DNA of 32,000 bases from an uncultured archaeon (GCA_964510585.1 CAZECW010000027.1:1-32000), one strand, 5' to 3'. Positions 1-18,846 are shown, counted from the first letter of the stretch. Numbers and translations: made by a program. Notes: generated from the sequence alone by a model not told the origin.

Positions 1-857
1 CACTGGATAGAAGGGCTGAAGAACCTTTAAAGGAGCCCCCTGCTTGGAGTAAAAGGTAGAGTCCGAGGTTGCTGCTACGGTTCTGGTGGCTGCTCACCAG
101 CCAAAACCAGTTTTAATAACCTATCTCATTTTCAAATACTGGGGTTTTAGAAAAGGTTTATAAATTCATAAAAAATCCCTGTGATTTCATTCTCTCGGGG
201 TGAATTTGTGTTTAATGCGCAGTTAATGCGTCTCGTCCTTACTAATTGCGTAGATAAATTTCCCATCTTTCTCAAAAGTAGGATAATCTTTTTTATAGGT
301 TTTTCTTGAAGGCAAATTGAGAGTGTTGAACTTCATAATAATTTTATTAGAAATACATAGTTGGATGCACCATTGGAAATACCATCCGGATGAAAATAGT
401 TAAAGGGGGTTGCAAAGCGAACATGCCCGCTACCTGTAGCAACAGTAAAGAGATTTACCATGTTGGAACATGTACCACACTTCAAGAAGAACTTATGAGA
501 CAAAAGGCTAAAACCACGGACAACCCAGCACAAATGGTGATGGAAGAATTTCAATTTTGGAGTCGACAGTTTGACCTTACTTTAAAGAGCTGCTATTTTC
601 TAACTAGGTTTCTGGATTCTGAGCTTAGACATTTGCGGTTAATGGGTGGGAAATCCTTCATTAATAAACTTAGTTTGGGAGTTCTATCTGGTGAAATGAA
701 TGTACTTAGAAAAAGTGTTTATGTAGCCAACTGTGAGGTGGTAGGATGCTTTTCTGTGGTGCTTGAGAGCATAATGTATTCGTCGCTAAACGTAAAAAGT
801 ACGCAAAATTTGGTATTTCCATGGTCATCCGAGTAAAAGATTTTGAAGGTGAGGGTA

Positions 858-1874
858 ATGGTGTATGGACTGTACATATTTGATGAGAATGGAAACAATG
901 TTTTCGAGAGGTTCTATGGAAAAATTAATTTGCATCCAGAAATCCTGCTCAGTTTTTGCAAAGAAATTACAAAATTTGTGCAAAACATAGATCAGAGCAA
1001 AAGAATCGGCCTTTTTAATATTGAGAAGTTGACTTTTATCTACTCGCTTTCCCAAGACATCTCCTTGGTGTTATGCTCCGACCAAAAGGAAGATGAAATG
1101 TACCTCATAAACAAACTAGTCAAAGTGCAAGAGGAAGCCCACAAAATCTTAAAACAAAAAACAGCAATGACAACCCAGACAGCAGAAGAAACAACAAAAA
1201 CAGAGGGAATAATGGAAACAGAATCAACTATGGAAACTGAAGAAGCAGTGGGACCTATAGAAACTATGGAAACAGAAACTAAGGAAGGGGTGGATGGGAA
1301 AGTTGAGGAAAGTCCTTTAAAGAATTTTGAGCAGGTTGTAGATGAGATTCTGTTTCCCTTCCTCAAAATAGCTATTCTCGGTTCAGGCGGGGTTGGGAAG
1401 AGTTCAGTGTTGAAACTGGTTTTAGGTGACGAGCCGGATGCCAACTATATTCCCACAGTGGGTGTGGATATTAAAGAGTTTGATTTTGAAGTAAAGAGTA
1501 TGAAGCTCGTTTTTTGGGACTTTTCGGGCCAGCCCCATTTCAGAAAACTGTGGCAACCGTTTCTTGAGGAAGCCGATTTGGTCATAGTGGTAAGCAACTC
1601 AACGGTTGAGAACCTGGTTGAAACTAAATCTATAATACAATTAATAAATGCGGAGAAACCAGACGCATGCATTGTACTAATAGCCAACAAGCAAGATTTA
1701 CCAGAGGCAATTCCTCCCGAAACAATCGAAAAATATATGGGAATGCCTGTACATGGACTGGTCGCAATAGACCCAAACCAGAGGGAAAAACTTTTGGAAA
1801 TCCTCAAAGAGGCAATCTTAGAACTCATCGAAAAAAGATCTCAAAAAACCTCTCTGGCAGAAATTAACACATAG
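858..1874 (+). CDS. Longin-like domain fused to Arf-like small GTPase (paralog 1), with acidic Thr/Glu-rich insertion
   Basis: ORF 843..1874; ATG at 858 follows AGGTGAGGG. GTPase motifs: G1 GSGGVGKS, G2 PTVG, G3 WDFSGQ (+RKLW, Arf-like), G4 NKQDLP. N-terminus VYGLYIFDENGNNVFERFY resembles the first beta-hairpin of longin domains. Confidence 0.85.
   Translation: MVYGLYIFDENGNNVFERFYGKINLHPEILLSFCKEITKFVQNIDQSKRIGLFNIEKLTFIYSLSQDISLVLCSDQKEDEMYLINKLVKVQEEAHKILKQKTAMTTQTAEETTKTEGIMETESTMETEEAVGPIETMETETKEGVDGKVEESPLKNFEQVVDEILFPFLKIAILGSGGVGKSSVLKLVLGDEPDANYIPTVGVDIKEFDFEVKSMKLVFWDFSGQPHFRKLWQPFLEEADLVIVVSNSTVENLVETKSIIQLINAEKPDACIVLIANKQDLPEAIPPETIEKYMGMPVHGLVAIDPNQREKLLEILKEAILELIEKRSQKTSLAEINT
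1212..1277 (+). repeat. In-frame imperfect repeat ATGGAAAC(A/T)GAA (METE) x3
   Basis: Copies start at 1212, 1230 and 1266, all in frame, inside the low-complexity segment. Confidence 0.7.
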
Positions 1875-2363
1875 GTTCAACCAGCAATGCAATCACAAAT
1901 GAAACAACAGATACCGAAAAATTTTGGAACCCCTACAATTTTTAAGGAATTTATTCAGACCCCACACTAACCCCTATTCACCTCAAACAAAATATTACGA
2001 TTATGCCTTTGGTTCAAATAACAGGATAAAGCAAGCATGGCTCTCTGCCTTTCTTTGGGAAATTTTTTGGCAGTGTTGCGTCTTCACCTTCTTGGATTTA
2101 TCTTTTCTAAATTTTATCTCCACATTCCGTGCTAGCTTCTCGAGTGGGTTGCACTACATGTAGTTTTCGTGATGGTTTTTGAAGCTTACAGATTTGTTGG
2201 ATTTCCATAGACTCATCTATAGTTTCAAAATTGGAGCACGAACCAAGTTGGTGAAATGGGGTTCTTTAGAGAATTTGGAGTATTGGACAAAAAAGCATAT
2301 TTGTTTAGAACGCATTTTTTTAGGTAAAGAACCCTTAGGTTGCATAAGGTGAGGGTTAACTTT

Positions 2364-3467
2364 ATGGAAGAGCTAATTTCGTTTTTGTCGGATCAGCGGG
2401 TGTGGCTTCTTATTGATCGGTTATTGGCTGAGCCGGATTTGGAGTTTTTTCCCCAATTTTCGCATTCAACCACCCTGGGATTTAGGTATCCTGAAGCGGA
2501 GAAAATTCTGGCAATGAACAGTTTGGAAGCCTTCGAAATTCTGAACCGCTTAACCTCTCTCAATGTTCTCTCTAAAAATGTTGAGGACACAATACTTACC
2601 TGTCCCGAGTGCAGGAATTACGACATCCATTTAAGGCTTACCTGTCCAAAGTGTGGGAGTGGTAACACTAGTCGCGAAACGGTGGTGGAGCATTTCGAGT
2701 GTGGACTCATCGATCTAAAGGAAAAGTTTGGAAAACACACTATGCTTCTTTGCCCGAAGTGCAAAAAGAAGCTGCGGTCTGAAGGCGAAGACTATAACGT
2801 TACTGTAACCAATATGTGTCACTCATGCGGGGCACTATTTTCTCAGCCTGCGGCGCGGATGCACTGTTTTAATTGCGATTCAGAATTTAAAGTCGACGAA
2901 GCTCAGAGACAGGAGGTCTACTCCTTCAGGTTCAATAAAGGAATTCGCCCCAGCATAATAAATCTATTAGCTTACCGACCAATGCTGACAGAAATTAAAC
3001 CCTCCAGGAAGAGAAAAGTTGAATTAGACCCCCTTAACGTTCACCTAATTAACGTTCTTCAAAAGGATGGACGGGCATCATTCCGGGAAATAAGCAGAAA
3101 ATTGAAAGTCAGCGACGCGACCATCAGAGACCGCGTTAACAAGCTTCTCAAAAGCGGAGTAATAGAGGAAATCACCGCCATCGTGAACCCACAAAAAGTG
3201 GGAAAAGAAGAAATATCCTTCATCATCCTAGAGATTGAACCCTCAGAACTAACAAAGGTTTTATCCAAACTAAAAGACATACCTGAAATAAAATTCGTCT
3301 GCGAAACCGCAGGCAAAGAAAACGCCCTCATTATGGTCTTCTCAGAAAACAGAGAAACACTAAAAGAACTCATCGACCAAAAAATCAGCGCACTACCAGC
3401 AACAAAAATAACACAAATCCTAAGTGTCACAAACTTCCAGAAAAAGGATTTAAAAGTAACACTTTAG
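2364..3467 (+). CDS. Lrp/AsnC-family regulator with N-terminal multi-zinc-ribbon (TackOD1-like) domain
   Basis: ORF 2340..3467; ATG at 2364 follows AGGTGAGGG. Cys motifs CPEC, CPKC, EHFECG, CPKC, CHSC, CFNC. C-terminal LDPLNVHLINVLQKDGRASFREISRKLKVSDATIRDRVNKL...GVI is a classic AsnC HTH, followed by a RAM-like ligand domain. Confidence 0.85.
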   Translation: MEELISFLSDQRVWLLIDRLLAEPDLEFFPQFSHSTTLGFRYPEAEKILAMNSLEAFEILNRLTSLNVLSKNVEDTILTCPECRNYDIHLRLTCPKCGSGNTSRETVVEHFECGLIDLKEKFGKHTMLLCPKCKKKLRSEGEDYNVTVTNMCHSCGALFSQPAARMHCFNCDSEFKVDEAQRQEVYSFRFNKGIRPSIINLLAYRPMLTEIKPSRKRKVELDPLNVHLINVLQKDGRASFREISRKLKVSDATIRDRVNKLLKSGVIEEITAIVNPQKVGKEEISFIILEIEPSELTKVLSKLKDIPEIKFVCETAGKENALIMVFSENRETLKELIDQKISALPATKITQILSVTNFQKKDLKVTL

Positions 3468-3894
3468 CAATAACCCATTATTGCCCCCAGCCAGCATCAC
3501 TTTCCAACAATTAGACTTGTGTCTGAAAAATTTTCCAAATAAACTAAAATTGCAAAAAATTCGCCAAAACACATCAAAGGTAATAGCTCCTAAAATATAG
3601 ATTTTTGTGGCCAGCTCTCCTATCTTCTCTTATGAATAATATCTGGATGTTATTCCAACCAAGCAAAGAGCTTTGCTCAAATATTTTGAAGGAAAGGGGA
3701 TGGAGGAGAATGAGTTTACTACCCCCGATGTGCGCATAAAGGAAACCAAAAGAACATGAAAACTATGGAAATACCTGCCTTACTGCATAATTCTATTTTT
3801 TCAATTCGTTTGCCTTTTTAGATGAATTTTTGCAATTACGCGATGCTGAAAAATTTTCGGAACAACAAATAAAATCGCCAGAAAAAGCAAAATT

Positions 3895-4812
3895 ATGAAA
3901 CAGGAGAGGGATGCCACAAACTTTTTATCCATGGGCGAAAAGTTTTTACTCATGTCACGCCCATCTTTTCTTAACGTTGGTTTTGATCAGAACGGTCAAT
4001 TCATTCCCCTAACCTATGAACACATAAGCACCACACTGGACAATGTGAAATTCGACAAGGACTGGGGAACATTAACAATATCCGATGTTCGTATCGTTTG
4101 GTACAAAAAGAGAAGTGTTGGAAAAGCAATCCTCAAAGGAGCTCTAGCAGCAGCCGCCGTTGGTATCGCTAGTGGGGTGGCCGGAGAAATTGTGGGAAGA
4201 AATGTAGGCGGCTTGGCTGGCCACATCGCTCGAAGGGCCATAACTGGCGCTGGCTTTGCAATTGGTTCTGGAATGATTCTCGGTGCTATGACTGGAAATG
4301 ACTTTATGAATATTGGTCGGGACGGCAAACTCGAATCTCTAGCGATTCCCCTAGCTTCGGTTAAAGACGTTCAATCCGACAGTAAGGGCCTAACCATAAT
4401 TCTGGAAAGCGGCGACTCTATGCGTTTCGAAGTAAAGAACTTAAAAGCTTTACCAGCAATCAAGACGACAATAAAAGCAAAAAAAGACGAAGGAAAATGC
4501 CCATACTGTGGAGCAGTAATCCCTCCAGGTAACACTTCCTGCCAATCCTGCGGAGCCCCAGTTAGAGCATCCACAGTGCCTCCGGGCACTGCAAGAACCC
4601 AATCTGCCTTCGGCTCACAAATCGGTGCACAAGGCCCCGCATCCCAAACAATGCAAACAACAAGATGCCCCTCATGCGGTAAACAAGTACCATTGGCAAA
4701 ATTTTGTTTTGAGTGCGGTTCCCCAATAGGACAAGTGTGCCCTAACTGCGGGCAAGCAATTCCATCAAACATGTCTGGTAAATTCTGTCCACACTGTGGC
4801 GGTAAGTTATAG
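3895..4812 (+). CDS. PH/GRAM-like domain with Gly/Ala-rich (glycine-zipper-like) insertion and C-terminal zinc ribbons
   Basis: WGTLTISDVRIVWYKK and IPLASVKDV...LTIILESGDSMRF resemble PH-like strands, separated by ~55 Gly/Ala-rich residues. Six CxxC motifs in the C-terminal third. Start could instead be the second Met (MGEK). Confidence 0.7.
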   Translation: MKQERDATNFLSMGEKFLLMSRPSFLNVGFDQNGQFIPLTYEHISTTLDNVKFDKDWGTLTISDVRIVWYKKRSVGKAILKGALAAAAVGIASGVAGEIVGRNVGGLAGHIARRAITGAGFAIGSGMILGAMTGNDFMNIGRDGKLESLAIPLASVKDVQSDSKGLTIILESGDSMRFEVKNLKALPAIKTTIKAKKDEGKCPYCGAVIPPGNTSCQSCGAPVRASTVPPGTARTQSAFGSQIGAQGPASQTMQTTRCPSCGKQVPLAKFCFECGSPIGQVCPNCGQAIPSNMSGKFCPHCGGKL

Positions 4813-5425
4813 TTCTTAAAAGCTTCAATGCAAGTGAGTCATCCCGTAGGTAGTATTCCCAATTTTATTCCTAGTTTGTGACAGTAGCCTCCAGGCGGTT
4901 CCAGGACATTTTAGCCACTAGAGCTAGGCACAGGTAGATGGGTGCGAAGCCGTAGTTGTTTTGGAACGTGACTTCCGTAGAATTAAGCATCTCACTTTTT
5001 TGCGTTGGGGGCGTTCGATCCAAACAATTATTTCTTTGTAAAATTAGAAATCTTGCAAGTACAGAAGGCTCTCTCCGTATCAAACAGCTTTTTATCAACT
5101 CGTGACAGTCTTCAAAAAGATTTATAAGTACTCAATATTTTTCTGAATTCCCTTTTTCTTTTGTGATTCTGGGCTTAATGCGCTGTTGAAATGTAAAATA
5201 ATTTGCGGGTTGCGTGGCTTAGACTCACTTTTTTTGGCAAAATAAGTATTGCGTTTTTTCTTGTATTTGCTTTTTAGGTTTTTTGCCAGCTTTTGCGGGT
5301 TTTAAGCATATTAAATCTGTGATTAGTTAGTGACCAGGCGATTCTTGCAACCTCCCGAATCGATTTAATTCAATAAGCGAGGACGAGCTAATGAGAACCA
5401 GTTTCCCTGTTGAAGGTGGAAAGAG

Positions 5426-6277
5426 GTGGGTAAAGTTAAAGCTTTAGTTGCCGGTGAGAATAAGGAAGTTTTCCGGGAGGAATCCCCTGATACCATCGAA
5501 GCGAAGTTGATGGGATGCGTAGCCAAAATTAGGAACGAATTGGTTCAGGGTATAACTATGAAGTTTCCTATTAAGGGCTTAGAAATGGTTGTTGGACAGG
5601 TATTTGATGGTGCTATAGAGAAACATTTTGACTCCCTCCTGAAAATTTTGGATTTAAAGCATTCACCATTAAAGGATAATTCTTCGAAGGTAGAGTCTTC
5701 GAAGTCTAGAATTTTTGATTCTCGCGGTTATGTTTACTCTCAGTCGAAGGTTAAGGTAAGTGATGCGGTTAAACGTTCTGAGGAAAATGTAAACTTATCA
5801 CTGGACACCCGTGTCCAAACTGGTGCTGAGACAGTTGGAAAAATAGATGAGAGAGTGATTAGTGAATACCAGAAAAGAATAGATGAATTAATGTTGGGAA
5901 TAAAAGCTAGAGATAGCAAAATATTGGGGCTCAAAAGGGAGATAGAAAAGCTTCAAAAATCATTAGAGCTCTTACAGGCACAAGCGTCTTCTCCATTTAT
6001 TTATTCTGCATCTCCCAACCAGGAAGAGGCGATACATATTCAGAATCAGTTGAGAAGTATGATGGAATTTATGAGAAGAATCACCCCTATTCTAAATAAG
6101 GATCCCAAATACAAGATAATGTTCTTCCTGAAACGTGTGGGCAAAGCCCCGGCTAGTAAACTCGGCGAAGAACTGGGCATACCTCCAAAGGAATTAGACT
6201 CACTCATCAAAGAACTTGAAACTATGAAAATAATAAGAAAAGAAGAGGAAACCGTTTTCCTCACTGATGTCCATTGA
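5426..6277 (+). CDS. Hypothetical protein: central coiled coil plus C-terminal winged-helix domain
   Basis: 283-aa ORF. Heptad-like YQKRIDELMLGIKARDSKILGLKREIEKLQKSLELLQ; wHTH-like DPKYKIMFFLKRVGKAPASKLGEELGIPPKELDSLIKELETMKII. Ends 57 nt upstream of the next gene. Confidence 0.7.
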   Translation: MGKVKALVAGENKEVFREESPDTIEAKLMGCVAKIRNELVQGITMKFPIKGLEMVVGQVFDGAIEKHFDSLLKILDLKHSPLKDNSSKVESSKSRIFDSRGYVYSQSKVKVSDAVKRSEENVNLSLDTRVQTGAETVGKIDERVISEYQKRIDELMLGIKARDSKILGLKREIEKLQKSLELLQAQASSPFIYSASPNQEEAIHIQNQLRSMMEFMRRITPILNKDPKYKIMFFLKRVGKAPASKLGEELGIPPKELDSLIKELETMKIIRKEEETVFLTDVH

Positions 6278-6334
6278 ATAAACTAGTAGTTAAAGAATTA
6301 GAAACAATCCATCTTCTCCCAACTAAAAAAGGTT

Positions 6335-7249
6335 ATGAAGGCGAAGAAATTGATATATGGACTATTCATATTTGATAGGGTTGGAAAAAGCCTTTACCAA
6401 AAGTTTTATGGAAAAATTAACTTAGACCGCGAACTCCTAACCCGTTTCGTAAGGGAGTTTATAGTTTTCATTCTAAATTTTGACCAAAGCGATAGGGTGG
6501 AATGCCTAAACCTTGAAAACATGAAATTAGTTTACTCCATAATTAAAAACACGGTTTCCGCAATTTCCACGGATCAAAAAGAAGACGAAATGTATCTAAT
6601 GGACAAACTCATCAAAATACATGAACAATTCATTAAAATTTACGAGAACCCCTCCAAAGAGGAAGCAGAAGAAAAAGAAAAGGTAAATGCGCCGACAATC
6701 GAGGAAAACCCATTAATGAATTTTGAGAAGACAGTGGATGCGATCCTGTTTCCCTTTCTAAAAGTAGCTATCCTCGGTTCAAGTGGAGTTGGAAAAACCT
6801 CGGTGATGAAACTAATTGTGGGCGACGAGACGGACACAACATACACTCCCACAGTAGGTGTAGACATTAAAGAGTTTGACATGGACTTCAAAAATATGAA
6901 ACTCATTTTTTGGGACTTCTCAGGCCAACCACATTTCAGAAAACTGTGGCAACCCTTCCTCGAGGGAACTGACATCGTCATACTCGTAACCGATTCCAAA
7001 ACCGAAAACCTAGCGGAAACCAGAGCAATACTACAACTAGTTAAGAGGGAAAAGCCAGACGCAAACATCCTATTAATAGCAAATAAGCAGGACTTACCCA
7101 ACGCAAACCCCCCAGAAACAATAGAAAAGTACATGGGAATAAAGGCATATGGAATTGTGGCAATCGACACAAAATACAGAGAAAAAGTAATAAAAGCACT
7201 CAAAGAGACGATAACGGGACGCATAGAACCCCAACCTCAACAAACCTAA
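6335..7249 (+). CDS. Longin-like domain fused to Arf-like small GTPase (paralog 2)
   Basis: G1 GSSGVGKT, G2 PTVG, G3 WDFSGQ, G4 NKQDLP. N-terminus IYGLFIFDRVGKSLYQKFY. Aligns end to end with 858..1874 apart from a shorter acidic insertion. Confidence 0.85.
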   Translation: MKAKKLIYGLFIFDRVGKSLYQKFYGKINLDRELLTRFVREFIVFILNFDQSDRVECLNLENMKLVYSIIKNTVSAISTDQKEDEMYLMDKLIKIHEQFIKIYENPSKEEAEEKEKVNAPTIEENPLMNFEKTVDAILFPFLKVAILGSSGVGKTSVMKLIVGDETDTTYTPTVGVDIKEFDMDFKNMKLIFWDFSGQPHFRKLWQPFLEGTDIVILVTDSKTENLAETRAILQLVKREKPDANILLIANKQDLPNANPPETIEKYMGIKAYGIVAIDTKYREKVIKALKETITGRIEPQPQQT

Positions 7250-7490
7250 TAACAAGAATTACCACATAAATCCTACTATAATACTAATTTTCCCCTCTTT
7301 TAGAAATAGGTGTAGTGCGGTTTTTAAATTAGTTCGCCCAAATTAACATTGTAAATTTTCAAATAATCTTTAAGCCCCATTTAACAAATTTTAAATATCC
7401 CATGGAACATTTTTGGGGCAGAGTTCAACAATATTCAGCGCAAAAAGTGGAGTGGGATAGGGGATGATTTCTAATTGGGATGCTGCCTTT

Positions 7491-8921
7491 TTAGAGGATG
7501 CTCCTTAGTGATACTTCGTTGTTTCCGTTCACGTTTTCGATAACCAAGGCATACATTTCCGTTGGGGGAAACTCGCCGTATATTACTGTTGTCCCTATGC
7601 GTTCCATAACGAAATTGGTTGATGATAGGTGCCTTAAACTGTCTATGCATTGAATGCCTTGCCTTGCCATTGCTAAGATTATTCCCTTCATGTAGCCAGT
7701 TTCAAGAACTATTGCCCCTATATTTCTTCGGAGAGCTTCTTCTCCGAAAATTCTCTCCAAAGTGTCTACTCCAAGGAGCCATAGGAATGTTTCAGCACCC
7801 AGCCGCTTGGTGACCTCAGTTACCGCATTACGGAAATCCAAAATAAACTCTTGTATGTTATCCTTTGAAACACTAATCTCGTTAAGTTCACTTTCTGCCT
7901 CTTCTGTCAATACTAAAAAATGAAGATACTTTCTAATCAGCGAGAGAATCTTCTCATCATTTCCTAATCCCACTGTAGATGATAAGTATTCCATAGCTAA
8001 TTTGGTTGTAGCGGTTTGTGGTAAATTTATAAAAGCGGGTATTTCCTGCCGAATAAAACTTAATACAATTGGCCATAGGAAGTAAACGTATTCTGTTCCT
8101 ATGCCTTTTGCCACTTCAAGGAGGTTAAGTGTACTCTTCCTCAACCCCCCATTCAAAATTTTATCCAGCTCTTGAATGCTTGTGGAGATAAACATACTCT
8201 CTCCTGATTTTTCAAGTTTTGGAGGAGCATATTTAATGTGGGGAAAGTTTATTGGTTCGAAGATGGTGAATCTTCCATTTTTGAGGGAGAAAAGATAGAA
8301 TGGCTGTTTTATCTCCCCACCACGTAGCTTTTCCAGATACAGTTTCCTAACAAGCCTATCCTTCACTATTCCCCTTTCCAGTCTAACCACTGCATCAGTT
8401 AAATAGTCGAGTCTCTGGTTCTCACTTGCCTCCGATACGAAGATCATGTTTGTGTTTGTCTTCGCTCCCAATTCCAACAGAATGCTTTCAAGCGTGGTGT
8501 CACCAAGGGGAATGTTCATGTTTGTTTTAATAGCATCCAAACTGTCAATAATGACTGTTACGGGCCGCTTCTCCGACTGTTGGATCCTATCATTTATCGA
8601 CCTTAAAAATTCTGGCTGCTCAGTATACTCAAATATTGCACTCCTGGGAAGATCAGAGGACAAATAGGAGCGCCTAGCATCCAGAATGTTCCGCTCATTC
8701 AGGCATTCACCTATCCAGGGAAACTGATCCAAAAGTCTATCAGGAGAAACCCGCGAAGAAAGATAGATAACAGTCTTATCCCCAGTGGAAATACCCTTAA
8801 CCATCTCTAAAGCCAAAGTAGTCTTACCCGAACCAGGAGCCCCCTTAATATGAACAGAATATCTTCCCTTCTCCAAAAGACCTATAAGCTCAGCCGGAAC
8901 ATTCCTTTCAACACTCAGCAT
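7491..8921 (-). CDS. GvpD-like / KaiC-RAD55 superfamily ATPase with two RecA-like domains
   Basis: ORF 7491..8936; likely ATG at 8921. Walker A GAPGSGKT, YLSSRVSPDRLLDQFPW, Walker B VIIDS, LDYLTDAVV, LEKLRG. Second domain starts ISTSIQELDKILNGGL with a degenerate P-loop (EVAKGIGTE). Confidence 0.8.
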   Translation of the reverse strand: MLSVERNVPAELIGLLEKGRYSVHIKGAPGSGKTTLALEMVKGISTGDKTVIYLSSRVSPDRLLDQFPWIGECLNERNILDARRSYLSSDLPRSAIFEYTEQPEFLRSINDRIQQSEKRPVTVIIDSLDAIKTNMNIPLGDTTLESILLELGAKTNTNMIFVSEASENQRLDYLTDAVVRLERGIVKDRLVRKLYLEKLRGGEIKQPFYLFSLKNGRFTIFEPINFPHIKYAPPKLEKSGESMFISTSIQELDKILNGGLRKSTLNLLEVAKGIGTEYVYFLWPIVLSFIRQEIPAFINLPQTATTKLAMEYLSSTVGLGNDEKILSLIRKYLHFLVLTEEAESELNEISVSKDNIQEFILDFRNAVTEVTKRLGAETFLWLLGVDTLERIFGEEALRRNIGAIVLETGYMKGIILAMARQGIQCIDSLRHLSSTNFVMERIGTTVIYGEFPPTEMYALVIENVNGNNEVSLRSIL

Positions 8922-9187
8922 CGTTCCCACCCACACTTCTCAAAAAATATAAACATTCCTAAATTAAAAATACACACCCTTTTTTAAAAACATTATTGGT
9001 TAAGGAAGCATACCCCACACTCAAAAACCAAAAAAGAAAACATCAACGAAAAATAAATAATAGAAAACCATACTAACCACACAAATTATTTAAATAAAAA
9101 CAAGAACTCTACATAGTTATTACCCCATGGCAAATCCCCCTTTTTTTTCCCGCCTCATTCCACAGAATTTCTTGGTAACATTACAAC

Positions 9188-9232
9188 GCTGAAAAAATTA
9201 CAACACAAAAAATAAACAAGCTGAAAAAATTA
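9188..9232. repeat. 13-nt direct repeat GCTGAAAAAATTA, two copies 32 nt apart
   Basis: Copies at 9188-9200 and 9220-9232 in the intergenic region upstream of the ATPase gene. A-rich, so may be chance. Confidence 0.35.
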
Positions 9233-9355
9233 AAATTATGCAGCATCCAAAGAAAAATTCCCGCGCCTTGGAAAAAAGCTACATCGCTATACCACACTAA
9301 ATGTGGAGCCCCAAATATTTAAGAGAATAACAAAGAAAAAAGGAAGGGAGGGAAG

Positions 9356-10291
9356 TTACCGCCTTCTAAGATACAATGCCACCCCAGCAACCACCAAGAT
9401 AATTACTGCAGCCCCTACACCCGCCATTATCCTCAAATTAGCCTGCTGCTGTTGCTGATACGTGTTAAATAGAGTAAACGTAGTCAACATCATAATAAGC
9501 TCATGTATCGGATAAGAAACACTGTAATCCGTCAAATTCCAAGAAAGGTAGAGAACGCCCCCACCAGTATAGTCTTCTCTGTAAACAACATTCTTGACGT
9601 CTGGATTATACCACATGAGCGAATAGTAACCAGTTGCGAATGCGCTGGTTTCGTTGACCAGCCAGCACTCGAAAGTCCCCTTTGCAGTTATAACAGTAGT
9701 AACATTCACGACAGACCCGGTAACAGTGATGTCATATGGAGTTGTGTTTTCCCAACTAAGAATAATCCTTATGCCAGAAGAAGAGTTGTAAAAAGAGCCT
9801 ATGAAGTAGACTCTTATGCCCTCGCTCCAAGTTTTGCCTTCGCTGAGTGGGAATTCAAACATTTTCCATGTATCATTAAAGTGGTACCAGCCGTCAGTCT
9901 CAAAGTAGTAACTGGGAGGCGTGAGATATGTATCATTTCGGTGCATATATATTGCTGTTACGTTTCCATCCATCGAGTAATAGGTCTGAAGTATCATTTC
10001 CGTCTTCACTAATGGGTTTGTTGTACTATAGTTGGTAGTATAGTTGTAGCAGTGGTAAGTTTTTGATTCGTTGAATCCAGCGTTTATATCTGCGAGACCT
10101 GTGACCATCAATTTAGCATTACCTGTTGTAAAAGGCCCCGTTAAGTCGTATTGCCATGTGTCACCTATTGCGGGTATATCTGCGGGCATGCCGCTTAAGG
10201 GAGCTGATAGGGATGGTGTAACAATTGTGGCGGCTAACAAAAGAACCACAGCCACCGCTGCAACAGAAGCAAAGAAAGACCTTTTCCTCAC
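9356..10291 (-). CDS. Exported beta-rich surface glycoprotein with C-terminal membrane anchor
   Basis: GTG start 7 nt after AGGAGGT. Signal peptide MRKRSFFASVAAVAVVLLLAATIV, about 11 N-x-S/T sequons, C-terminal MAGVGAAVIILVVAGVALYLRRR. Confidence 0.8.
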   Translation of the reverse strand: MRKRSFFASVAAVAVVLLLAATIVTPSLSAPLSGMPADIPAIGDTWQYDLTGPFTTGNAKLMVTGLADINAGFNESKTYHCYNYTTNYSTTNPLVKTEMILQTYYSMDGNVTAIYMHRNDTYLTPPSYYFETDGWYHFNDTWKMFEFPLSEGKTWSEGIRVYFIGSFYNSSSGIRIILSWENTTPYDITVTGSVVNVTTVITAKGTFECWLVNETSAFATGYYSLMWYNPDVKNVVYREDYTGGGVLYLSWNLTDYSVSYPIHELIMMLTTFTLFNTYQQQQQANLRIMAGVGAAVIILVVAGVALYLRRR

Positions 10292-10999
10292 TCCATAACC
10301 TCCTTCTAAATTGCAAATATATTTGTTGCTTCTAATTAAAAAGATTTTCGCCTATCTGCTGTGTTGCATAATTCTTATTTTTTAATTTATTTATATATTA
10401 TTTTGAATTTTTTGCAATTTCACATTGTTAATTTGAAAAAATTTAAGAAAATTAAATAAATTCATTAGAAAAAATAAAATTATACAACACAGCACGCCTA
10501 TCAAATTAGCACAATTAACTAGGAGTTACCTATTGTGTGCATGTTTGAACGTGTTCTAAGCCCCTCTATGGAAGCCTGCTCGCAGTTGTTCCACCAGTAA
10601 AGCAAGCTGAAAAACACGTCCAGGAAGAAGGGCGTTTGAGACGAAAAATGTACAGCACACAACAGGTGCCACCGGGTTAACAGTCTCATCAAATTGTACA
10701 CGATGTAACGGGTATGTATTTTTGGTGTTTGGTATTGTGGAAGTGTTTTTCTTAACTCCTCTAATAAGTCTCAGAATTGGAAAAAAGGTTAATAGTGCTT
10801 CTTTTAAGGCAACCAACAAACAAAAATACATACCCTCTGTGTAAAACACACACTACATTGTGCCATCAAATTGTGCCCTTCAAAAGACAAAAGGGAGGCT
10901 AGTTAACCTACTTCTCAAAAAAATAATTATTACATTGTGTTTTTGGGAGAAGTAAACTTAATATGTTTGGTGCACGGTAATAATTTCTTGGTGTTATCC

Positions 11000-13380: not shown

Positions 13381-14715
13381 GTGACAGAACCTGAAGTTGA
13401 AGTCGTTGTGGTTCCTAGGTGGCGTCAGCCACTTTCAGGGCTTTGCGCTTTGCTTCTAGGAGTGCTTATTGCTCTTTTCACTTGGTGGATTTTTGCTGAC
13501 ATCAGATTTTCTCTGGGACACTTCATGTTCGGCTGGTACCCTGAGGTAGCATCGCTCCTGGGCGGATGGGGGCTTCTTGTCGCGGTCTGGCAGGCTTGGC
13601 TGGATAACTATCCATACTCCAAGCTTAAGAGGTCTTGGGCAGTGGGTATCGCGGGAACCGTTCTAAACATAGTTGTGGTTTGGTTCATGGTTTATGTGGT
13701 GTTCTACCAACTGATCGGTAGCTTGGTCCCTGAGGCCAGCTTTCCGAAGCTTCTCGCGTACGGGTTCCCCATCGAAACTGCGCTTTACATTTCTTCATCC
13801 GCTACTGGTATGGTCACCGGGGCTACGTTTTCCTTCGGTTTACTTTGGGTAGCAGGCACAATGTTTTGGCCCCTCTACCACGCCAAGCAGCCGAAAAGGG
13901 GACTTTACAGTGTCCTTCTCGCATTCGCCATTGGGCTGACCGCTTGGTACTTTTTACTCCTTCCACCTGTCTCTCAGATGGCGCAGAACTCCGCAGCAAT
14001 ATTAACGTTTATGGGCCTCTCAGAGCTTCAACCAGCCATGAGCACAATATACACCATTATAATCTACTACTACACAGTCTCGTGGTTCTACCTTAACACT
14101 GGAGCCCTGAGAATGCTTAACTTGACTCAGTGGGTAATTTTCTTCGCACTGCTCACAATGCTAACCTGGGAGTATGAGCCTTGGATAAGGCTGAAAAAAC
14201 AGCCTTTGGTAGGCATGGTCGCTTTCGTCTCTTGCACGTTTCTAGGTGTGCTCTTCGGACTCGTCCTATCACAAATGGTATACACGCCGCCTATCCCCTC
14301 GTCTTACGTGTGGTTTGCGTTGGGCCAAACGTTACTGGCTCCTATGGCAGAAATTGCGAGGGAGGGTGCGAGGTGGACGGCTCCGCTAGTCTTAGCAGTG
14401 TTCTTCATTATGGCAGAGTTTATCCTCTATTTCTACTTTGACAACTGGCCCAAAAAGTACAATAAACTGGTCAACATCGCGGTGAGAACTGTGATAGTCG
14501 TCCTGGGAGGGCTGGCAATGCTTTATCTATACTACCTATTCTCGGCCAGAATCATTGGCGACCCGGACATACTCACGATGCTAAGTTACCCCATACTCTT
14601 CCTAGACCCTAGACCACTGACAAACCCATTACCCTTCCAGCTCTGGCTCCTATGGGTTCTACTGCTACACGGATATGTATGGAGGAAATGGCCCATCTGG
14701 AAGCCCCTAACATAA
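13381..14715 (+). CDS. Polytopic membrane protein, putative transporter, with internal repeats
   Basis: 444 aa, highly hydrophobic (about 10-12 TM segments). Recurring (W/Y)P-x4-6-QP-xx-G motif. Confidence 0.75.
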   Translation: MTEPEVEVVVVPRWRQPLSGLCALLLGVLIALFTWWIFADIRFSLGHFMFGWYPEVASLLGGWGLLVAVWQAWLDNYPYSKLKRSWAVGIAGTVLNIVVVWFMVYVVFYQLIGSLVPEASFPKLLAYGFPIETALYISSSATGMVTGATFSFGLLWVAGTMFWPLYHAKQPKRGLYSVLLAFAIGLTAWYFLLLPPVSQMAQNSAAILTFMGLSELQPAMSTIYTIIIYYYTVSWFYLNTGALRMLNLTQWVIFFALLTMLTWEYEPWIRLKKQPLVGMVAFVSCTFLGVLFGLVLSQMVYTPPIPSSYVWFALGQTLLAPMAEIAREGARWTAPLVLAVFFIMAEFILYFYFDNWPKKYNKLVNIAVRTVIVVLGGLAMLYLYYLFSARIIGDPDILTMLSYPILFLDPRPLTNPLPFQLWLLWVLLLHGYVWRKWPIWKPLT

Positions 14716-14720
14716 AAAGA

Positions 14721-14750
14721 GGAGGGCAAGAACCCTCCAATTTCTTTTCA
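14721..14750 (+). terminator. Possible terminator hairpin GGAGGG-caagaa-CCCTCC followed by a T-rich tract
   Basis: 6-bp stem at 14721-14738, 6 nt after the stop codon at 14715, then AATTTCTTTT. Confidence 0.4.
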
Positions 14751-14810
14751 ACCCAAATTTTATGAATAATAAACTTCTCATAGAAAGCCAAAAGCAGTGG
14801 GATAAGCAAA

Positions 14811-14843
14811 ACTTTTTTATTAAAAAAGTAGGTCTAATATAAA
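14811..14843 (+). promoter_or_regulatory. Inverted repeat ACTTTTTT-att-AAAAAAGT next to a TATA-like TAATATAAA
   Basis: Perfect 8-3-8 palindrome at 14811-14829; TATA-like element at 14835-14843, upstream of the hydrolase/ligase operon. Confidence 0.4.
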
Positions 14844-14923
14844 CCCTAGCCTGTATGGATTTACCTTGATGAAAGGTTTGAGGGACGGTGAAGAAATTTT
14901 TCGTTATTTGGGAGTGGTTTGGT

Positions 14924-15784
14924 TTGCCGTATACTGAACTCAGGGATGGTGTGAGACTGTTTTTCGAAATCCGGGGAGAAGGGCCTCCCCTTGCGATGAT
15001 AGAAGGGTGGGGATACTCCCGATGGATGTGGTTTAAACAGATTAACCACTTCTCAAAAAAGTATACATGCATCGTCTTTGATAATAGGGGGGTGGGTTTG
15101 AGTGATAAGCCCGATGAACCTTATAGTGTCGAGTTGTTCGCTGATGACTTGAGGGAGCTCCTTGACCATATTGGAGTTAGTAGGGCGCACATACTAGGGA
15201 TTTCTATGGGGGGCTTTATTGCCCAAAAGTTCGCCTTAAAGTATCCGGGGAGAGTGTTGAGCCTGATCCTTGTATCCACCCACTTTGGGGGAGAAAAAGC
15301 AAGGCAAACGCCAAAGGAAACCATGGACGCTATTTTGAGTATAAGAGAGGAGGACCTTGGGGCTGGAGAAGCCTTAAAGAGAAAGATGTCCTTTGCATTT
15401 AACCCAAAATACTTAGAGGAAAACCCAGAAGAAATAGACCAGATAATATCGTGGAGAATTGAGGAAGCTCAGCCAAGATACGCTTGGCTCAGGCAGGCCG
15501 AGGCTGTCCAAAACTTCAACCTTGGAAACAAAGCATCGCAAATAAAAGCCCCCACCCTGATTGTGGCAGGCACCAATGATCGGGTTGTCCCACACCAGAA
15601 CGCCGAGCTACTACTGGAAACCATTCCCAACTCGAAACTGGTACTTTTTGAGGGGGGCTCCCACCTCCTCTTTATAGAAAACGCGGACACCTTTAACAAA
15701 GTGGTTATGAAATTTCTAAACGAGGTGGATGAAGGAGTGTTTAGCACAAGTAAAAGAAAGATAACGATAAATGTTAAGAGGTGA
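14924..15784 (+). CDS. Alpha/beta hydrolase (enol-lactonase / PHA-depolymerase-like)
   Basis: ORF 14888..15784; likely TTG at 14924. FDNRGVGLSDKP, nucleophile elbow GISMGG, GGSH. Stop lies 4 nt before the ligase ATG. Confidence 0.9.
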   Translation: MPYTELRDGVRLFFEIRGEGPPLAMIEGWGYSRWMWFKQINHFSKKYTCIVFDNRGVGLSDKPDEPYSVELFADDLRELLDHIGVSRAHILGISMGGFIAQKFALKYPGRVLSLILVSTHFGGEKARQTPKETMDAILSIREEDLGAGEALKRKMSFAFNPKYLEENPEEIDQIISWRIEEAQPRYAWLRQAEAVQNFNLGNKASQIKAPTLIVAGTNDRVVPHQNAELLLETIPNSKLVLFEGGSHLLFIENADTFNKVVMKFLNEVDEGVFSTSKRKITINVKR

Positions 15785-15788
15785 GCGC

Positions 15789-17315
15789 ATGTCTTGGAGC
15801 TGGATTGGAGACTGGTCTGAGAGGCGGGCTTCACTAACACCCAAGAAAGAAGCCCTAATATATGAGGAAAAATCATTCACCTACGGTGAACTGAACTCTA
15901 GGGCCGATAGACTTGCAGGATATCTCGCTAAGAAAGGTGTCGGCAAGAGAGACAGAGTCTCATACCTTCTCAGGAACTGTGTAGAATGCTATGACACCTT
16001 CTTCGCGACAGGAAAGCTCGGAGCCATCTTGGCCCCTATGAACATAAGACTTTCTCCCAGAGAGATGACTCTCTTAGTGAAGCAAGTAAAACCAAAAGTT
16101 TTCATTTACGACCCAGAGTTCGAGGAAATCGTAAAGGAGATAAAGAAAGAGGTTAAGAGAGTCGACTTTCTTTCTATAGGCGAGGGAGGAGAGTACGAGG
16201 CAGCCCTCGATGAAGGAGGCGAAAAGCCGAAAAGAACGCTTGCCTCAATGGAGGATCCACACTTGATGCTGTTCACCGGCGGAACCACTGGTTTGCCTAA
16301 GGGGGCTATTCTTTCCCACAGGATGATTTTCTGGAACTCAGTGAACACTATAGTTACGTGGGGAATAACTCCTGAGGACATATCACCAATAGTTTTCCCA
16401 CTCTTCCACACTGGAGGGTGGAACACACTCGCAGTCCCCCTAATCCATGTTGGAGGCAAAATGATAACTTGGAGAAAATTCAACCCCGACGACGTCTTAG
16501 ACGCAGTGGAAAGGTACAAGTGCACCATAGTAATAGGCGCACCAACAATGTTCCACATGATGATGAACTCGCCGAAATTCGAAAAAACAAACATATCCTC
16601 AGTTAGAATGTGGATATCAGGAGGCGCCCCATGTCCCCTCCCAGTTATGGAGGCGTTCTGGAAGAGGGGCGCCGTCTTCATCCAGGGCTATGGACTAACG
16701 GAGGCGGGGCCAAACAACTTTTACATGCCAGTCGAATACATGAAGGAGAAGCACAGGTCGGTGGGGCTGCCATTCTTCCACAACGAGGTTAAACTTGTCA
16801 ACGAAAAGGGGAAAGAAGTTGGGGTAGGCGTGCCAGGAGAACTCCTCATCAGGGGACCCCACACCTTCTCAGGATACTGGGAGATGCCCGAAGAGACATC
16901 AAAAACTATAGACAAGGAAGGTTGGGTTCACACAGGAGACATAGTCATGAGGGACAGCGACGGCTTCTACTACATAGTAGACAGGAAGAAGGACATGTAC
17001 ATTAGTGGAGGCGAAAACGTATACCCAGTTGAGATTGAAAACGTAATATACCAGCACCCGAAGGTGGCAGAGGTTGCAGTCATAGGGGTTCCAGACGAGA
17101 AGTGGGGAGAAGTGGGAAAAGCAATAATTGTGCCCAAGCCGGGAGAGACCATAACCAAGGAGGAAATAGTGGAGTTCTGCAAAGGGAAACTGGCAAAGTA
17201 CAAGGTGCCGAAATACGTGGCACTTGTCAACTCGCTTCCAAAGTCACCTGCAGGAAAAATACCAAAAAAAGACCTGAGAGGGGAATACGGGAAGCCGCAG
17301 GACGAAATACCCTAG
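15789..17315 (+). CDS. AMP-forming acyl-CoA synthetase (long-chain fatty acid-CoA / MenE-like ligase)
   Basis: ATG at 15789 after GAGGTGA. Motifs FTGGTTGLPKG, GYGLTE, HTGD, RKKDMYISGGENVYP, PKSPAGKI. Confidence 0.92.
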   Translation: MSWSWIGDWSERRASLTPKKEALIYEEKSFTYGELNSRADRLAGYLAKKGVGKRDRVSYLLRNCVECYDTFFATGKLGAILAPMNIRLSPREMTLLVKQVKPKVFIYDPEFEEIVKEIKKEVKRVDFLSIGEGGEYEAALDEGGEKPKRTLASMEDPHLMLFTGGTTGLPKGAILSHRMIFWNSVNTIVTWGITPEDISPIVFPLFHTGGWNTLAVPLIHVGGKMITWRKFNPDDVLDAVERYKCTIVIGAPTMFHMMMNSPKFEKTNISSVRMWISGGAPCPLPVMEAFWKRGAVFIQGYGLTEAGPNNFYMPVEYMKEKHRSVGLPFFHNEVKLVNEKGKEVGVGVPGELLIRGPHTFSGYWEMPEETSKTIDKEGWVHTGDIVMRDSDGFYYIVDRKKDMYISGGENVYPVEIENVIYQHPKVAEVAVIGVPDEKWGEVGKAIIVPKPGETITKEEIVEFCKGKLAKYKVPKYVALVNSLPKSPAGKIPKKDLRGEYGKPQDEIP

Positions 17316-18334
17316 CATGGCCCCCACTTAATTACTAAAGCGTCCCACGCATAACCTATACCTGCGCTAACTAGTACCACAAGGCTTCCATCCCTTATTT
17401 TTCCGCTTCTTAAACCCAACTCTAAGGATAGTATCTGGTCGCACTGTCCCAGATGGCCGTACTCCTCGAAATAGGTTGTCTGGTTCTCTTTTAGTCCCAG
17501 CTCGCTGAGTATGTAGTTATGTGCACTGCGTTTCATATGGAGAATTGCCAGGTAGTCTATGTCTTTGACGGTGTAGCCGCTTTTCTCCAGGGCATCGTTG
17601 ATCACCTTGAGGAAGTTTTTCATTGATAGGTCGTCGAGTCTGCGCTTCATATCCTCTGGGTCTCTTACGTCAAGGTAGTGGAGTTTACGCTCCAGGGTTT
17701 CGTGGCTTGTGGGCATTACGGTGCCTCCAGCCGGTACGTAGACGTCGTCCGCGAAGGAGCCGTCAGACATGAAGGCAGCACCTAATATGTGGTTGCTGGG
17801 ATGGTTTTTTCTGAGAACTGCCGCCGCGCCCCCAGCGGCTAGGTTGAACATGAACCTTGTTCTTTGGTTTTGATAATTTATGAGGTCGCAGTTTCTGTAT
17901 CCTGCGGCTACAAGGACTGTGTTTATGTCCTCGTTGGCTATCATCATGTCTTTTGCCAGTTTTAAACCGACAATCATTGTTCCGCAGCGTTGAGATATGT
18001 CGAATGCCCAAGCGTTAATTGCGCCAACCTCGTGTTGAAGCTTAATCCCGGCAGTAATCATTGGGTACTCCTTGTACTCCTCTCCAGACCATATAACTAA
18101 GTCGATATCCTCAGGATTGACATTCCCCCTTTCAAGTGCCGCCTTTGAGGCTTCGACACCCATGGATATTGGGTGGTCTTTATCGCTTGATGGCATAACT
18201 TTCCTTAGTATTCCCATCTTTTCCTCAACGATTTGCTTAGGTACTCCTGAAGCCCTAGCTATATCCTCGCTTGTGTGGAAACCTTTAGGTACGTAAACAC
18301 CTATCGAAACAACACCCACAGATGGCTTACCCAA
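17312..18334 (-). CDS. 3-oxoacyl-ACP synthase III (FabH)-like condensing enzyme, GHxGQ subfamily
   Basis: ORF 17312..18370; likely TTG at 18334. Catalytic Cys in AFDISQRCGT, His in ILHMKRS, YGHLGQ at the usual GNT position, SAGIG oxyanion loop. Confidence 0.88.
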   Translation of the reverse strand: MGKPSVGVVSIGVYVPKGFHTSEDIARASGVPKQIVEEKMGILRKVMPSSDKDHPISMGVEASKAALERGNVNPEDIDLVIWSGEEYKEYPMITAGIKLQHEVGAINAWAFDISQRCGTMIVGLKLAKDMMIANEDINTVLVAAGYRNCDLINYQNQRTRFMFNLAAGGAAAVLRKNHPSNHILGAAFMSDGSFADDVYVPAGGTVMPTSHETLERKLHYLDVRDPEDMKRRLDDLSMKNFLKVINDALEKSGYTVKDIDYLAILHMKRSAHNYILSELGLKENQTTYFEEYGHLGQCDQILSLELGLRSGKIRDGSLVVLVSAGIGYAWDALVIKWGPC

Positions 18335-18846
18335 AATGAGCACCACCTTCCCTTCAAAATGGAGAACCACAAAGGCCTAAATGAGTTATGCTTAATAAAT
18401 TTTGCAAATGTGTTATATATACTTCACTGCTTTGCAGGATGTATTTAATTTTCCTGTTTGGTATGCTTTTCGAAAACTTGTGTGTCTCATTTAGCTTTTA
18501 GCGTCTATTCCTACTGGTTATGTGGTTTTTCATCTATGTTTTCTTAGCAGTGCTTCTTGCGACTCACAAACTATGCTTCCTAAAATGGGTGGATTTAAAA
18601 AGGGGAGCCTTTAAGAGGAATTTTCTTAGCTGAGCCCTTTGTTTGTAAATTCATTTATTTTTCTGTGGCTTCACTCCCCTTGATGGCCAAAAAGTAGATA
18701 CTTTTATTTATAATTGGGGGGAATAATAAGAAAAGAACCAATTGTTTGAGAATATGTGGTGAAAAAACAAGTTTGTTTCTATGTTTTTGGGAGGGTTGCG
18801 GTGTTATTACTTGGTGTGTTGTGTGAATTAGAGTTTTTGTGAAGGG

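Follow-up and report, generated by a model that had tools for sequence, protein, structure and literature searches.

We asked whether the genes between positions 858 and 8,921 of a 32,000-nucleotide stretch of DNA from an uncultured archaeon (GCA_964510585.1, CAZECW010000027.1:1-32000; hereafter, the window) belong to one signalling system or merely lie side by side. An original prediction, made from the sequence alone, had described an undescribed Asgard signalling locus here: five co-oriented genes and a convergent ATPase gene, with no metabolic gene among them, and two longin-GTPases as its brackets. The open reading frames (ORFs) of all six genes are confirmed, as is the absence of a metabolic gene (Table 1). 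They encode two longin-GTPases (lonG1 and lonG2), two DNA-binding proteins (TackOD1-Lrp and the winged-helix protein ccHTH), a glycine-zipper/zinc-ribbon protein, and a GvpD-like member of the KaiC family. The window is contig C27 of a draft genome of 3.78 Mb (G000, 96% complete), and its DNA is contained in hot-spring metagenome runs; the congener G005, Candidatus Freyarchaeum deiterrae, has a complete chromosome (CP147778.1) and belongs to the Asgard class Jordarchaeia/Freyarchaeia. Our comparisons indicate that the locus is probably a lineage-specific, co-regulated signalling set, different in membership and narrower in range than first proposed.

Conservation across genomes indicates that the locus is more than a chance neighbourhood. 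In a synteny search, which had been suggested along with the original prediction, four families (lonG, TackOD1-Lrp, ccHTH, and the GvpD-like KaiC) are linked in five of the six species genomes of the genus and in three further metagenomic lineages. The gene order in G001, G003, and G004 is lonG1, TackOD1-Lrp, ccHTH, lonG2, the convergent KaiC-like gene, a 311-aa gene, and a hydrolase gene, which is the order of the window minus the zinc-ribbon gene. The bracketing by two longin-GTPases is thus seen in these three genomes as in the window, but other lineages are arranged differently. Using ccHTH, the rarest component (14 members among 5.8 billion proteins, every taxon-named one Frey- or Jordarchaeal), we traced a second arrangement in four contexts: G005, an 87-kb JGI contig (L028), the ENA contigs L030/L031, and a Jordarchaeaceae metagenome-assembled genome (L032). 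Specifically, a one-domain KaiC gene and the GvpD-like KaiC gene share a strand there and are divergent from TackOD1-Lrp, ccHTH, and one to three tandem lonG genes. Since ccHTH, lonG, and the KaiC-like gene of these lineages are about 50% identical to those of the window and the gene order is rearranged, the four families have been kept together through substantial divergence and at least one rearrangement.

The range of this linkage is narrow. Homologues of lonG are present in 31 of the 41 genomes searched (G000 included). At 20 lonG loci of other Asgard families, linked partners (KaiC-like, ccHTH, and TackOD1-Lrp) were not found by tblastn, and a hidden Markov model search gave one weak KaiC-like match. 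Within the genus, G002 (99% complete) lacks all five locus genes at once. A lineage-conserved, non-metabolic neighbourhood of GTPase, DNA-binding, and KaiC/GvpD genes is therefore borne out, but since the search of other Asgard families turned up no such linkage, the locus is not a general Asgard one.

We interrogated the noncoding DNA of the locus and found a shared promoter/leader element of ~230 bp, consisting of a canonical B recognition element (BRE)/TATA, two direct-repeat boxes, and then T-runs. The boxes follow the consensus WTGCGYRGWTAA and are spaced about 31-34 nt apart. In an alignment of the ccHTH upstream regions of eight lineages, the BRE/TATA AAAAAGRTTTATAA is invariant, at a fixed distance of 276-301 nt from the start codon. 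The window contains two copies, with the BRE/TATA at 151-163 and boxes at 215-226 and 246-257 in copy 1, where both boxes equal the consensus exactly, and with the BRE/TATA at 5114-5127 and boxes at about 5177-5188 and about 5210-5221 in copy 2. Altogether, 17 aligned copies fall into four positional classes, upstream of ccHTH, the GvpD-like gene, lonG1, and a Roadblock-GTPase unit. The element stands upstream of lonG1 in four window-type genomes and upstream of the GvpD-like gene in G005, L028, and L030; L028 has a further copy ahead of a longin/roadblock-like gene and a Ras-like GTPase gene. Every copy is oriented toward its downstream gene, and the distance from BRE/TATA to start codon is about 215-300 nt in four of the five positional sets and 440-700 nt for lonG1. 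The copies group by position and not by genome; therefore, each class predates speciation. These alignments indicate that several transcription units begin with old paralogous copies of one element.

The element is also confined to the gene set. An independent profile, built from the copies of other lineages only and scanned over the 3.78-Mb genome, finds only the two window copies (E = 1.2e-16 for copy 1 and 3.4e-14 for copy 2). A sequence-only covariance model (R1), run over 11 genomes of the order, recovers both (E = 1.9e-24 and 1.7e-21) and finds 2-4 copies in each cluster-bearing genome of the genus, no copy in G002, and marginal matches only in the sister family. R1 also identifies two further copies in G000, one at C117:1400-1533, which groups with an L028 copy (support 0.996), and a weak one on contig C116. 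Because the strong copies in the 3.78-Mb genome all lie within the gene set, the element argues for common regulation of that set. RNAalifold gave no consensus fold on 8 ccHTH leaders or on the 17 element copies, and Rfam gave no match over window positions 1-10500, indicating that it is the sequence itself that is conserved, as would be the case for protein-binding sites. A riboswitch or structured small RNA (sRNA) reading of the element was dropped, as there is no consensus fold.

The weak copy on C116 (L038, 2386-2510, E = 0.002) lies upstream of a 154-aa ORF with no Pfam match and a GvpD-like gene, between two divergent GvpD-like genes. At 23330-23341 of the window, one sequence comes close to the box consensus, probably by chance. 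Between copy 1 and lonG1, the open frame orf148 has no Pfam match, and no paralogue or homologue of it was found; in G001, G003, and G004, the region shows a ~250-nt deletion and the frame is not open. Thus, orf148 is probably non-coding, which makes the distance from the element's TATA to lonG1 unusually long, at about 700 nt. We rejected orf148 as a degraded ccHTH or KaiC remnant, since it shows no similarity to either.

Gene order and element copies further indicate that the gene set is larger than the window, with contig C117 carrying the rest. C117 contains, in order, a one-domain KaiC gene, the element, a Roadblock/LC7 gene, a Ras-like GTPase gene, a gene for a weak FlaH/KaiC-like protein, and a gene for a 511-aa TackOD1 protein. 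The one-domain KaiC is 91% identical across lineages and keeps all catalytic motifs, while the Roadblock and GTPase genes (Robl_LC7, 24.8 bits against a cut-off of 23; Ras, 181 bits) are 32 nt apart. The same block directly abuts the GvpD-like gene in G005 and L028. In L028, the lonG triplet is followed (14226-18564) by a partial copy of the element and a divergent KaiC-like gene (DUF7125), as well as by genes for a response regulator and a PAS histidine kinase. Here, the gene set has a two-component system inserted into it.

Table 1. Genes and promoter features of the window; positions are counted from its first nucleotide.
Feature	Position	Strand	Description
lonG1	858-1874	+	Longin domain at the N-terminus, an acidic linker rich in Thr and Glu, then an Arf/Rab-like small GTPase domain
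TackOD1-Lrp	2364-3467	+	Multi-zinc-ribbon TackOD1 fused to a full Lrp/AsnC regulator (HTH + RAM domain)
Gly-zipper/triple zinc-ribbon protein	3895-4812	+	Possible PH/GRAM-like N-terminus
ccHTH	5426-6277	+	Helical hairpin at the N-terminus, then a disordered linker, a long coiled-coil-like helix, and a putative MarR-like winged helix at the C-terminus
lonG2	6335-7249	+	Longin + Arf/Rab-like GTPase
GvpD-like two-domain KaiC-family NTPase (clade A)	7491-8921	-	Assigned by Pfam, motif alignment, and tree
Shared element copy 1 (class upL1)	146-381	+	Upstream of lonG1
Shared element copy 2 (class upc)	5110-5348	+	Upstream of ccHTH-lonG2
orf148	390-836	+	Open frame within the long lonG1 leader; probably not a gene
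BRE/TATA-like promoter of TackOD1-Lrp	2290-2310	+	Own promoter, not a copy of the shared element

In the other direction, one gene of the window appears not to belong to the set. The zinc-ribbon gene is missing from this slot in G001, G003, G004, and G005, and each of the five congeners has a single orthologue at another site, which adjoins a shared 405-aa gene in G004 and G005. The window copy is 64% identical to the orthologue and has a GC content of 0.47, compared with about 0.38 in neighbouring 1-kb windows. Given its position elsewhere in the congeners, its identity of only 64%, and its GC-richer stretch, the sequence comparison marks it as a local insertion and not as a conserved member. 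The genes flanking the G004 orthologue are 85-95% identical to G000 genes on contigs C21 and C48, and the contrast with 64% suggests that the zinc-ribbon gene was replaced by a more distant copy. The gene had been proposed as a membrane-interacting adaptor of the locus, a role that its other sites in all five congeners and its different composition here speak against. The protein itself matches the Pfam families DZR and Zn_ribbon and shows a glycine-zipper stretch in its translation, whereas the PH-like part of its annotation is unconfirmed, with no Pfam match and only low-score leads to GRAM/bPH_3 in an Atlas search. It is the sole exception among the original domain calls, nearly all of which were upheld by Pfam, profiles, and AlphaFold2 (AF2) models.

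About 1.3 kb with the zinc-ribbon gene lies inserted between TackOD1-Lrp and the shared element (3468-5109). The corresponding slot between TackOD1-Lrp and ccHTH holds a gene for a 372-aa Gtr1/RagA-family GTPase in G005 (L027 8485-9603), found in Ca. Freyarchaeum deiterrae only.

The two longin-GTPases are paralogues with 51% identity. Both match Arf, Roc, and Ras in Pfam (Arf, 69.6 and 79 bits for lonG1 and lonG2; cut-off 22.3), and the G1-G4 motifs (GxxxxGK[ST], PTxG, DxxGQ, and NKxD) are intact in lonG sequences. Since PDB profile matches of the G domain to Rab35 and Sec4 equal that to Arf1 in strength, Arf/Rab-like is the safer name. The lonG proteins have neither an Arf-type N-terminal amphipathic helix nor a myristoylated Gly2; their N-terminal part consists of a longin domain and then a linker. 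Longin-type Pfam models remain under their cut-offs (Clat_adaptor_s, 21.1 versus 22.5 bits; Fuz_longin_1, 14.4 versus 26.1 bits), yet a profile of 30 lonG N-domains matches AP-2 sigma (E = 1.5e-5), then AP-3 sigma, zeta-COP, Bet5, and Mon1. In addition, the AF2 model of lonG2 (mean confidence, pLDDT, 82.7) has the order beta-beta-alpha-beta-beta-beta-alpha-alpha (strands 7-14 and 19-24, helix 32-49, strands 54-59, 64-70, and 73-79, helix 85-104, and more helices after), which is the longin topology. Together, the profile and the model uphold the longin call. Phylogenetic footprinting places the lonG1 start at ATG 858 with a conserved Shine-Dalgarno (SD) sequence, and its orthologues in G001, G003, and G004 are 81-83% identical. 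The linker of lonG1 (residues ~105-150, window 1150-1300) is an acidic, low-complexity stretch rich in Thr, Glu, and Met, with M-E-T-E repeated, and is absent from lonG2.

A third close paralogue, lonG3, is encoded on contig C81 (258-2657 region) and is 54% identical to lonG2. It is convergent with a GvpD-like gene of a different clade, and this pair is kept in G001, G002, and G004 and is not adjacent in G005. We rejected the pair as a co-duplicated block because of the different clade of its KaiC-like gene and the separation in G005. The same contig carries an IS200/IS605-type transposase/TnpB gene at 5072-6745.

The convergent gene of the window had been called a two-domain RecA-fold ATPase of the KaiC/GvpD type. 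Pfam and PDB profiles agree with the families (KaiC, 54.5 bits; GvpD_P-loop PF07088, 53.8 bits, cut-off 24), and the catalytic Glu pair is missing. Motif alignment shows that the N-domain keeps Walker A and B with (S/T)-T-R in place of the catalytic Glu-Glu pair; it is a P-loop domain of the nucleoside triphosphate (NTP)-binding kind that probably does not hydrolyse NTP. The C-domain is KaiC-like (profile against PDB, E = 2e-4) and degenerate, without Walker A. Footprinting puts the start of the gene probably at ATG 8921. The window protein has no match to GvpD basic region 2 (PF20440) at E <= 0.1 and its L028 orthologue only a faint one, while the C81 and C116 paralogues reach 33-61 bits for GvpD_bR2 (cut-off 27.9) and also exceed the GvpD_P-loop cut-off. 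In a tree, all cluster-adjacent KaiC-like genes fall in one clade of nine (support 100/100).

TackOD1-Lrp matches TackOD1 (PF18551, residues 22-197, with a Cys-rich CxxC pattern) at 131.7 bits (cut-off 32), as well as an AsnC-type helix-turn-helix (HTH; 45.2 bits), AsnC_trans_reg (31.8 bits), and AsnC_trans_reg_3 (43.3 bits), with partial matches to Lrp-type NCBIfam models; it is 80-87% identical within the genus. Its promoter block (2290-2310) is invariant in 8 lineages and is followed by a conserved SD (GAGGGT) and ATG 2364. This promoter is built differently from the shared element and is equally conserved, and the block has one exact match only within the window. ccHTH has no Pfam match. 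Its AF2 model contains a long helix of 46 residues (142-187) and a C-terminal winged helix (227-279) with the order H-H-H-beta-beta and a pLDDT near 89, for which Foldseek gave weak top matches to MarR, PH1061, and AspA (E = 5e-3). A roadblock domain at its N-terminus was rejected, since the model shows a helical hairpin (residues 24-75). In every locus, ccHTH is directly upstream of lonG, with a gap of 186-237 nt elsewhere and 58 nt in the window, where ccHTH and lonG2 are therefore probably co-transcribed.

We read the window as half of a Freyarchaeia-specific, co-regulated signalling gene set with predicted regulator, GvpD-like, and GTPase roles, an interpretation toward which we lean, if not strongly. 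The members would be two kinds of GTPase module (two or three lonG paralogues and the Roadblock/Ras-like GTPase operon on C117), two KaiC-family proteins (the GvpD-like two-domain protein and the catalytically complete one-domain KaiC), and the DNA-binding proteins TackOD1-Lrp and ccHTH. An anti-phage defence system was considered and set aside, as PADLOC matches were limited to the HTH level for the Lrp part and to one weak mad8 match for the one-domain KaiC. Several observations weigh against a co-regulated set. With long gaps of about 430-610 nt between genes and a separate promoter for TackOD1-Lrp, the window locus is not a single operon. In the window's species group, a different promoter, which lacks the shared element, precedes the KaiC-like gene; the orthology of this gene to the cluster-adjacent copies of other lineages falls in a polytomy of the tree, and G005 also has a remote KaiC-like paralogue (54%). 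The active promoter could be either the upstream BRE/TATA or another AT-rich block that lies closer to the start codon, and we purely infer which protein binds the boxes. Moreover, lonG homologues are common across Asgard genomes without these neighbours, and the linkage is confined to one GTDB genus (g1) and close metagenomic kin, a distribution for which shared descent alone can suffice.

Shared descent is the alternative that survives best. The genes would then be independent regulators that are neighbours by descent only, the genus being young compared with the pace of rearrangement, and the element would be a by-product of segmental promoter duplication together with the genes. Such an origin fits the lack of linkage outside g1 among the families searched, the long gaps and separate promoters, and the recent paralogy of lonG1, lonG2, and lonG3, with which promoter copies could have duplicated. 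However, the element precedes genes that are not homologous to one another (ccHTH, GvpD-like, Roadblock, and lonG1), and its four classes and their boxes are kept across lineages whose proteins are about 50% identical. The linkage also survives at least one rearrangement, and the cluster-adjacent KaiC-like genes are all from one clade despite 4-7 matches to the window protein in each genome. We consider descent alone possible but doubtful.

Less probable still is a local circuit for GTPase expression only, in which TackOD1-Lrp and ccHTH are ordinary transcription factors acting on lonG and other GTPase genes when a metabolite is sensed, the KaiC-like genes are unrelated neighbours, and no signal passes from GTPase to DNA. 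Lrp/AsnC regulators typically sense small ligands, and the RAM domain is present in TackOD1-Lrp; the KaiC-like gene of the window is without the element; and factor-specific transcriptional control of Asgard GTPases has been suggested (Tran et al. 2024, PMC10933270). Against unrelated neighbours, the operon of the GvpD-like and one-domain KaiC genes does carry the element in G005, L028, and L030, a weak copy precedes another GvpD-like gene on C116, and a second lonG paralogue is paired on C81 with a GvpD-like gene of a different clade. Finally, that the element is a small mobile or repeat element (like a miniature inverted-repeat transposable element) or an sRNA gene, and not a promoter/operator, is highly improbable: genomes contain more than one copy, a short transcript could end at the T-runs that follow the boxes, and three of four draft assemblies (G000, G003, and G004; G001 reads through) break roughly 130-170 nt upstream of the lonG1-proximal copy, but the copies number just 2-4 per genome, all within the gene set, face their genes at the distances given above, group by position, and have neither an Rfam match nor a conserved fold.

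If the set is co-regulated, one locus-encoded regulator would bind the boxes and switch all units together. TackOD1-Lrp would be the likeliest box-binding protein, given that its promoter is a separate one, which is what a master regulator should have, and ccHTH could autoregulate. By analogy with GvpD and GvpE, the GvpD-like protein may act post-translationally on the amount or activity of one regulator. The lonG GTPases, which may dimerise or regulate themselves through their longin domains, would be the switch that is read out; the role of this platform is modelled on the longin/roadblock domains of Rag, SR-beta, and MglA. As ccHTH is always encoded directly upstream of lonG, it is the best candidate for a lonG effector or partner. 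Complex prediction of ccHTH with lonG2 (with GTP and Mg) gave a score of 0.23 against a mark of 0.32, which carries no weight for or against binding. A full circuit from GTPase to transcription, with GTPases binding ccHTH and/or TackOD1-Lrp nucleotide-dependently, the GvpD-like KaiC resetting the regulator, and the regulator feeding back through the two-box operator, is an unlikely, speculative extension.

The components of the set are of known kinds; their combination and the shared cis element are new. Haloarchaeal GvpD, a P-loop protein of the KaiC superfamily, lowers the amount of the activator GvpE. The protein described here resembles it as a two-part P-loop protein above the GvpD_P-loop cut-off, with paralogues that reach GvpD_bR2, encoded beside transcription regulators with a long helical segment of the dimerisation type. 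It differs in that gas-vesicle genes are absent, none of the regulators is a GvpE homologue, the set includes GTPases, and the action on a regulator is one that we infer. KaiC-like ATPases were reportedly proposed as archaeal signalling hubs by Makarova, Galperin, and Koonin in 2017 (cited in PMC5847659). In line with that proposal, KaiC-family proteins, inactivated forms included, are encoded here with signalling and DNA-binding partners, but what they associate with in this set are longin/Roadblock GTPase modules and TackOD1 proteins; in the literature searched, we found no paper linking KaiC with Asgard small GTPases and Roadblock proteins.

On the GTPase side, the C117 order of a Roadblock gene followed by a Ras-like GTPase gene recalls MglA-MglB operons, and lonG proteins carry a related longin platform in cis. 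Unlike MglA-MglB, the C117 operon is tied by the shared element to KaiC-family and transcription-factor genes and has no adjacent polarity or motility genes. As for Rag/Gtr, paralogous GTPases with a longin/roadblock-type dimerisation platform are encoded together, and the G005 cluster includes a Gtr1/RagA-family member; in contrast to Rag/Gtr, the lonG platform is an N-terminal longin and not a C-terminal roadblock, and the G domain scores highest as Arf/Rab. Asgard longin-GTPase fusions (Arf-like or Rag-like, 'AArf') have been published (Tran et al. 2024, PMC10933270; Vargova et al. 2025, PMC11914678), and lonG shares with them an N-terminal longin in cis to an Arf/Rab-like G domain. No conserved partners were reported in those papers, whereas lonG is set with two DNA-binding proteins, GvpD-like NTPases, and a shared element. 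TackOD1 has been described as an output domain in response regulators of archaea (Galperin et al. 2018, PMC5847659). TackOD1-Lrp contains this Cys-rich multi-zinc-ribbon domain joined to an Lrp/AsnC regulator in place of a receiver domain, and a second TackOD1 protein is in the set.

Asgard genomes encode dozens of small GTPases and longin/roadblock proteins, but to our knowledge, partners, regulators, or outputs have been established for almost none of them. According to Tran et al. (2024, PMC10933270), gene order is of little help here, and in MK-D1 the GTPase genes do not, as a rule, share operons with their regulators. The gene set described here gathers candidate partners for such otherwise orphan GTPases, and its defined ~230-bp two-box cis element is ready for direct use in binding and reporter assays. 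If the GTPases are indeed coupled to the DNA-binding outputs, eukaryote-like GTPase switches would act in gene regulation with an archaeal KaiC network, and not in membrane traffic, which would bear on how GTPase roles are read in eukaryogenesis scenarios. Should the full circuit hold, eukaryote-type small-GTPase switches would be wired directly into the archaeal KaiC signalling network.

One further observation concerns the start of ccHTH (5392-5445). The start ATG of other lineages is conserved in the window yet out of frame, and opens a 17-codon frame that ends at TAG 5443-5445, with the main ccHTH frame running from GTG 5426. Because two assemblies at 93% identity likewise give a 283-aa ccHTH, the N-terminus seems to be genuinely truncated, or the 17-codon frame to be a short upstream ORF.

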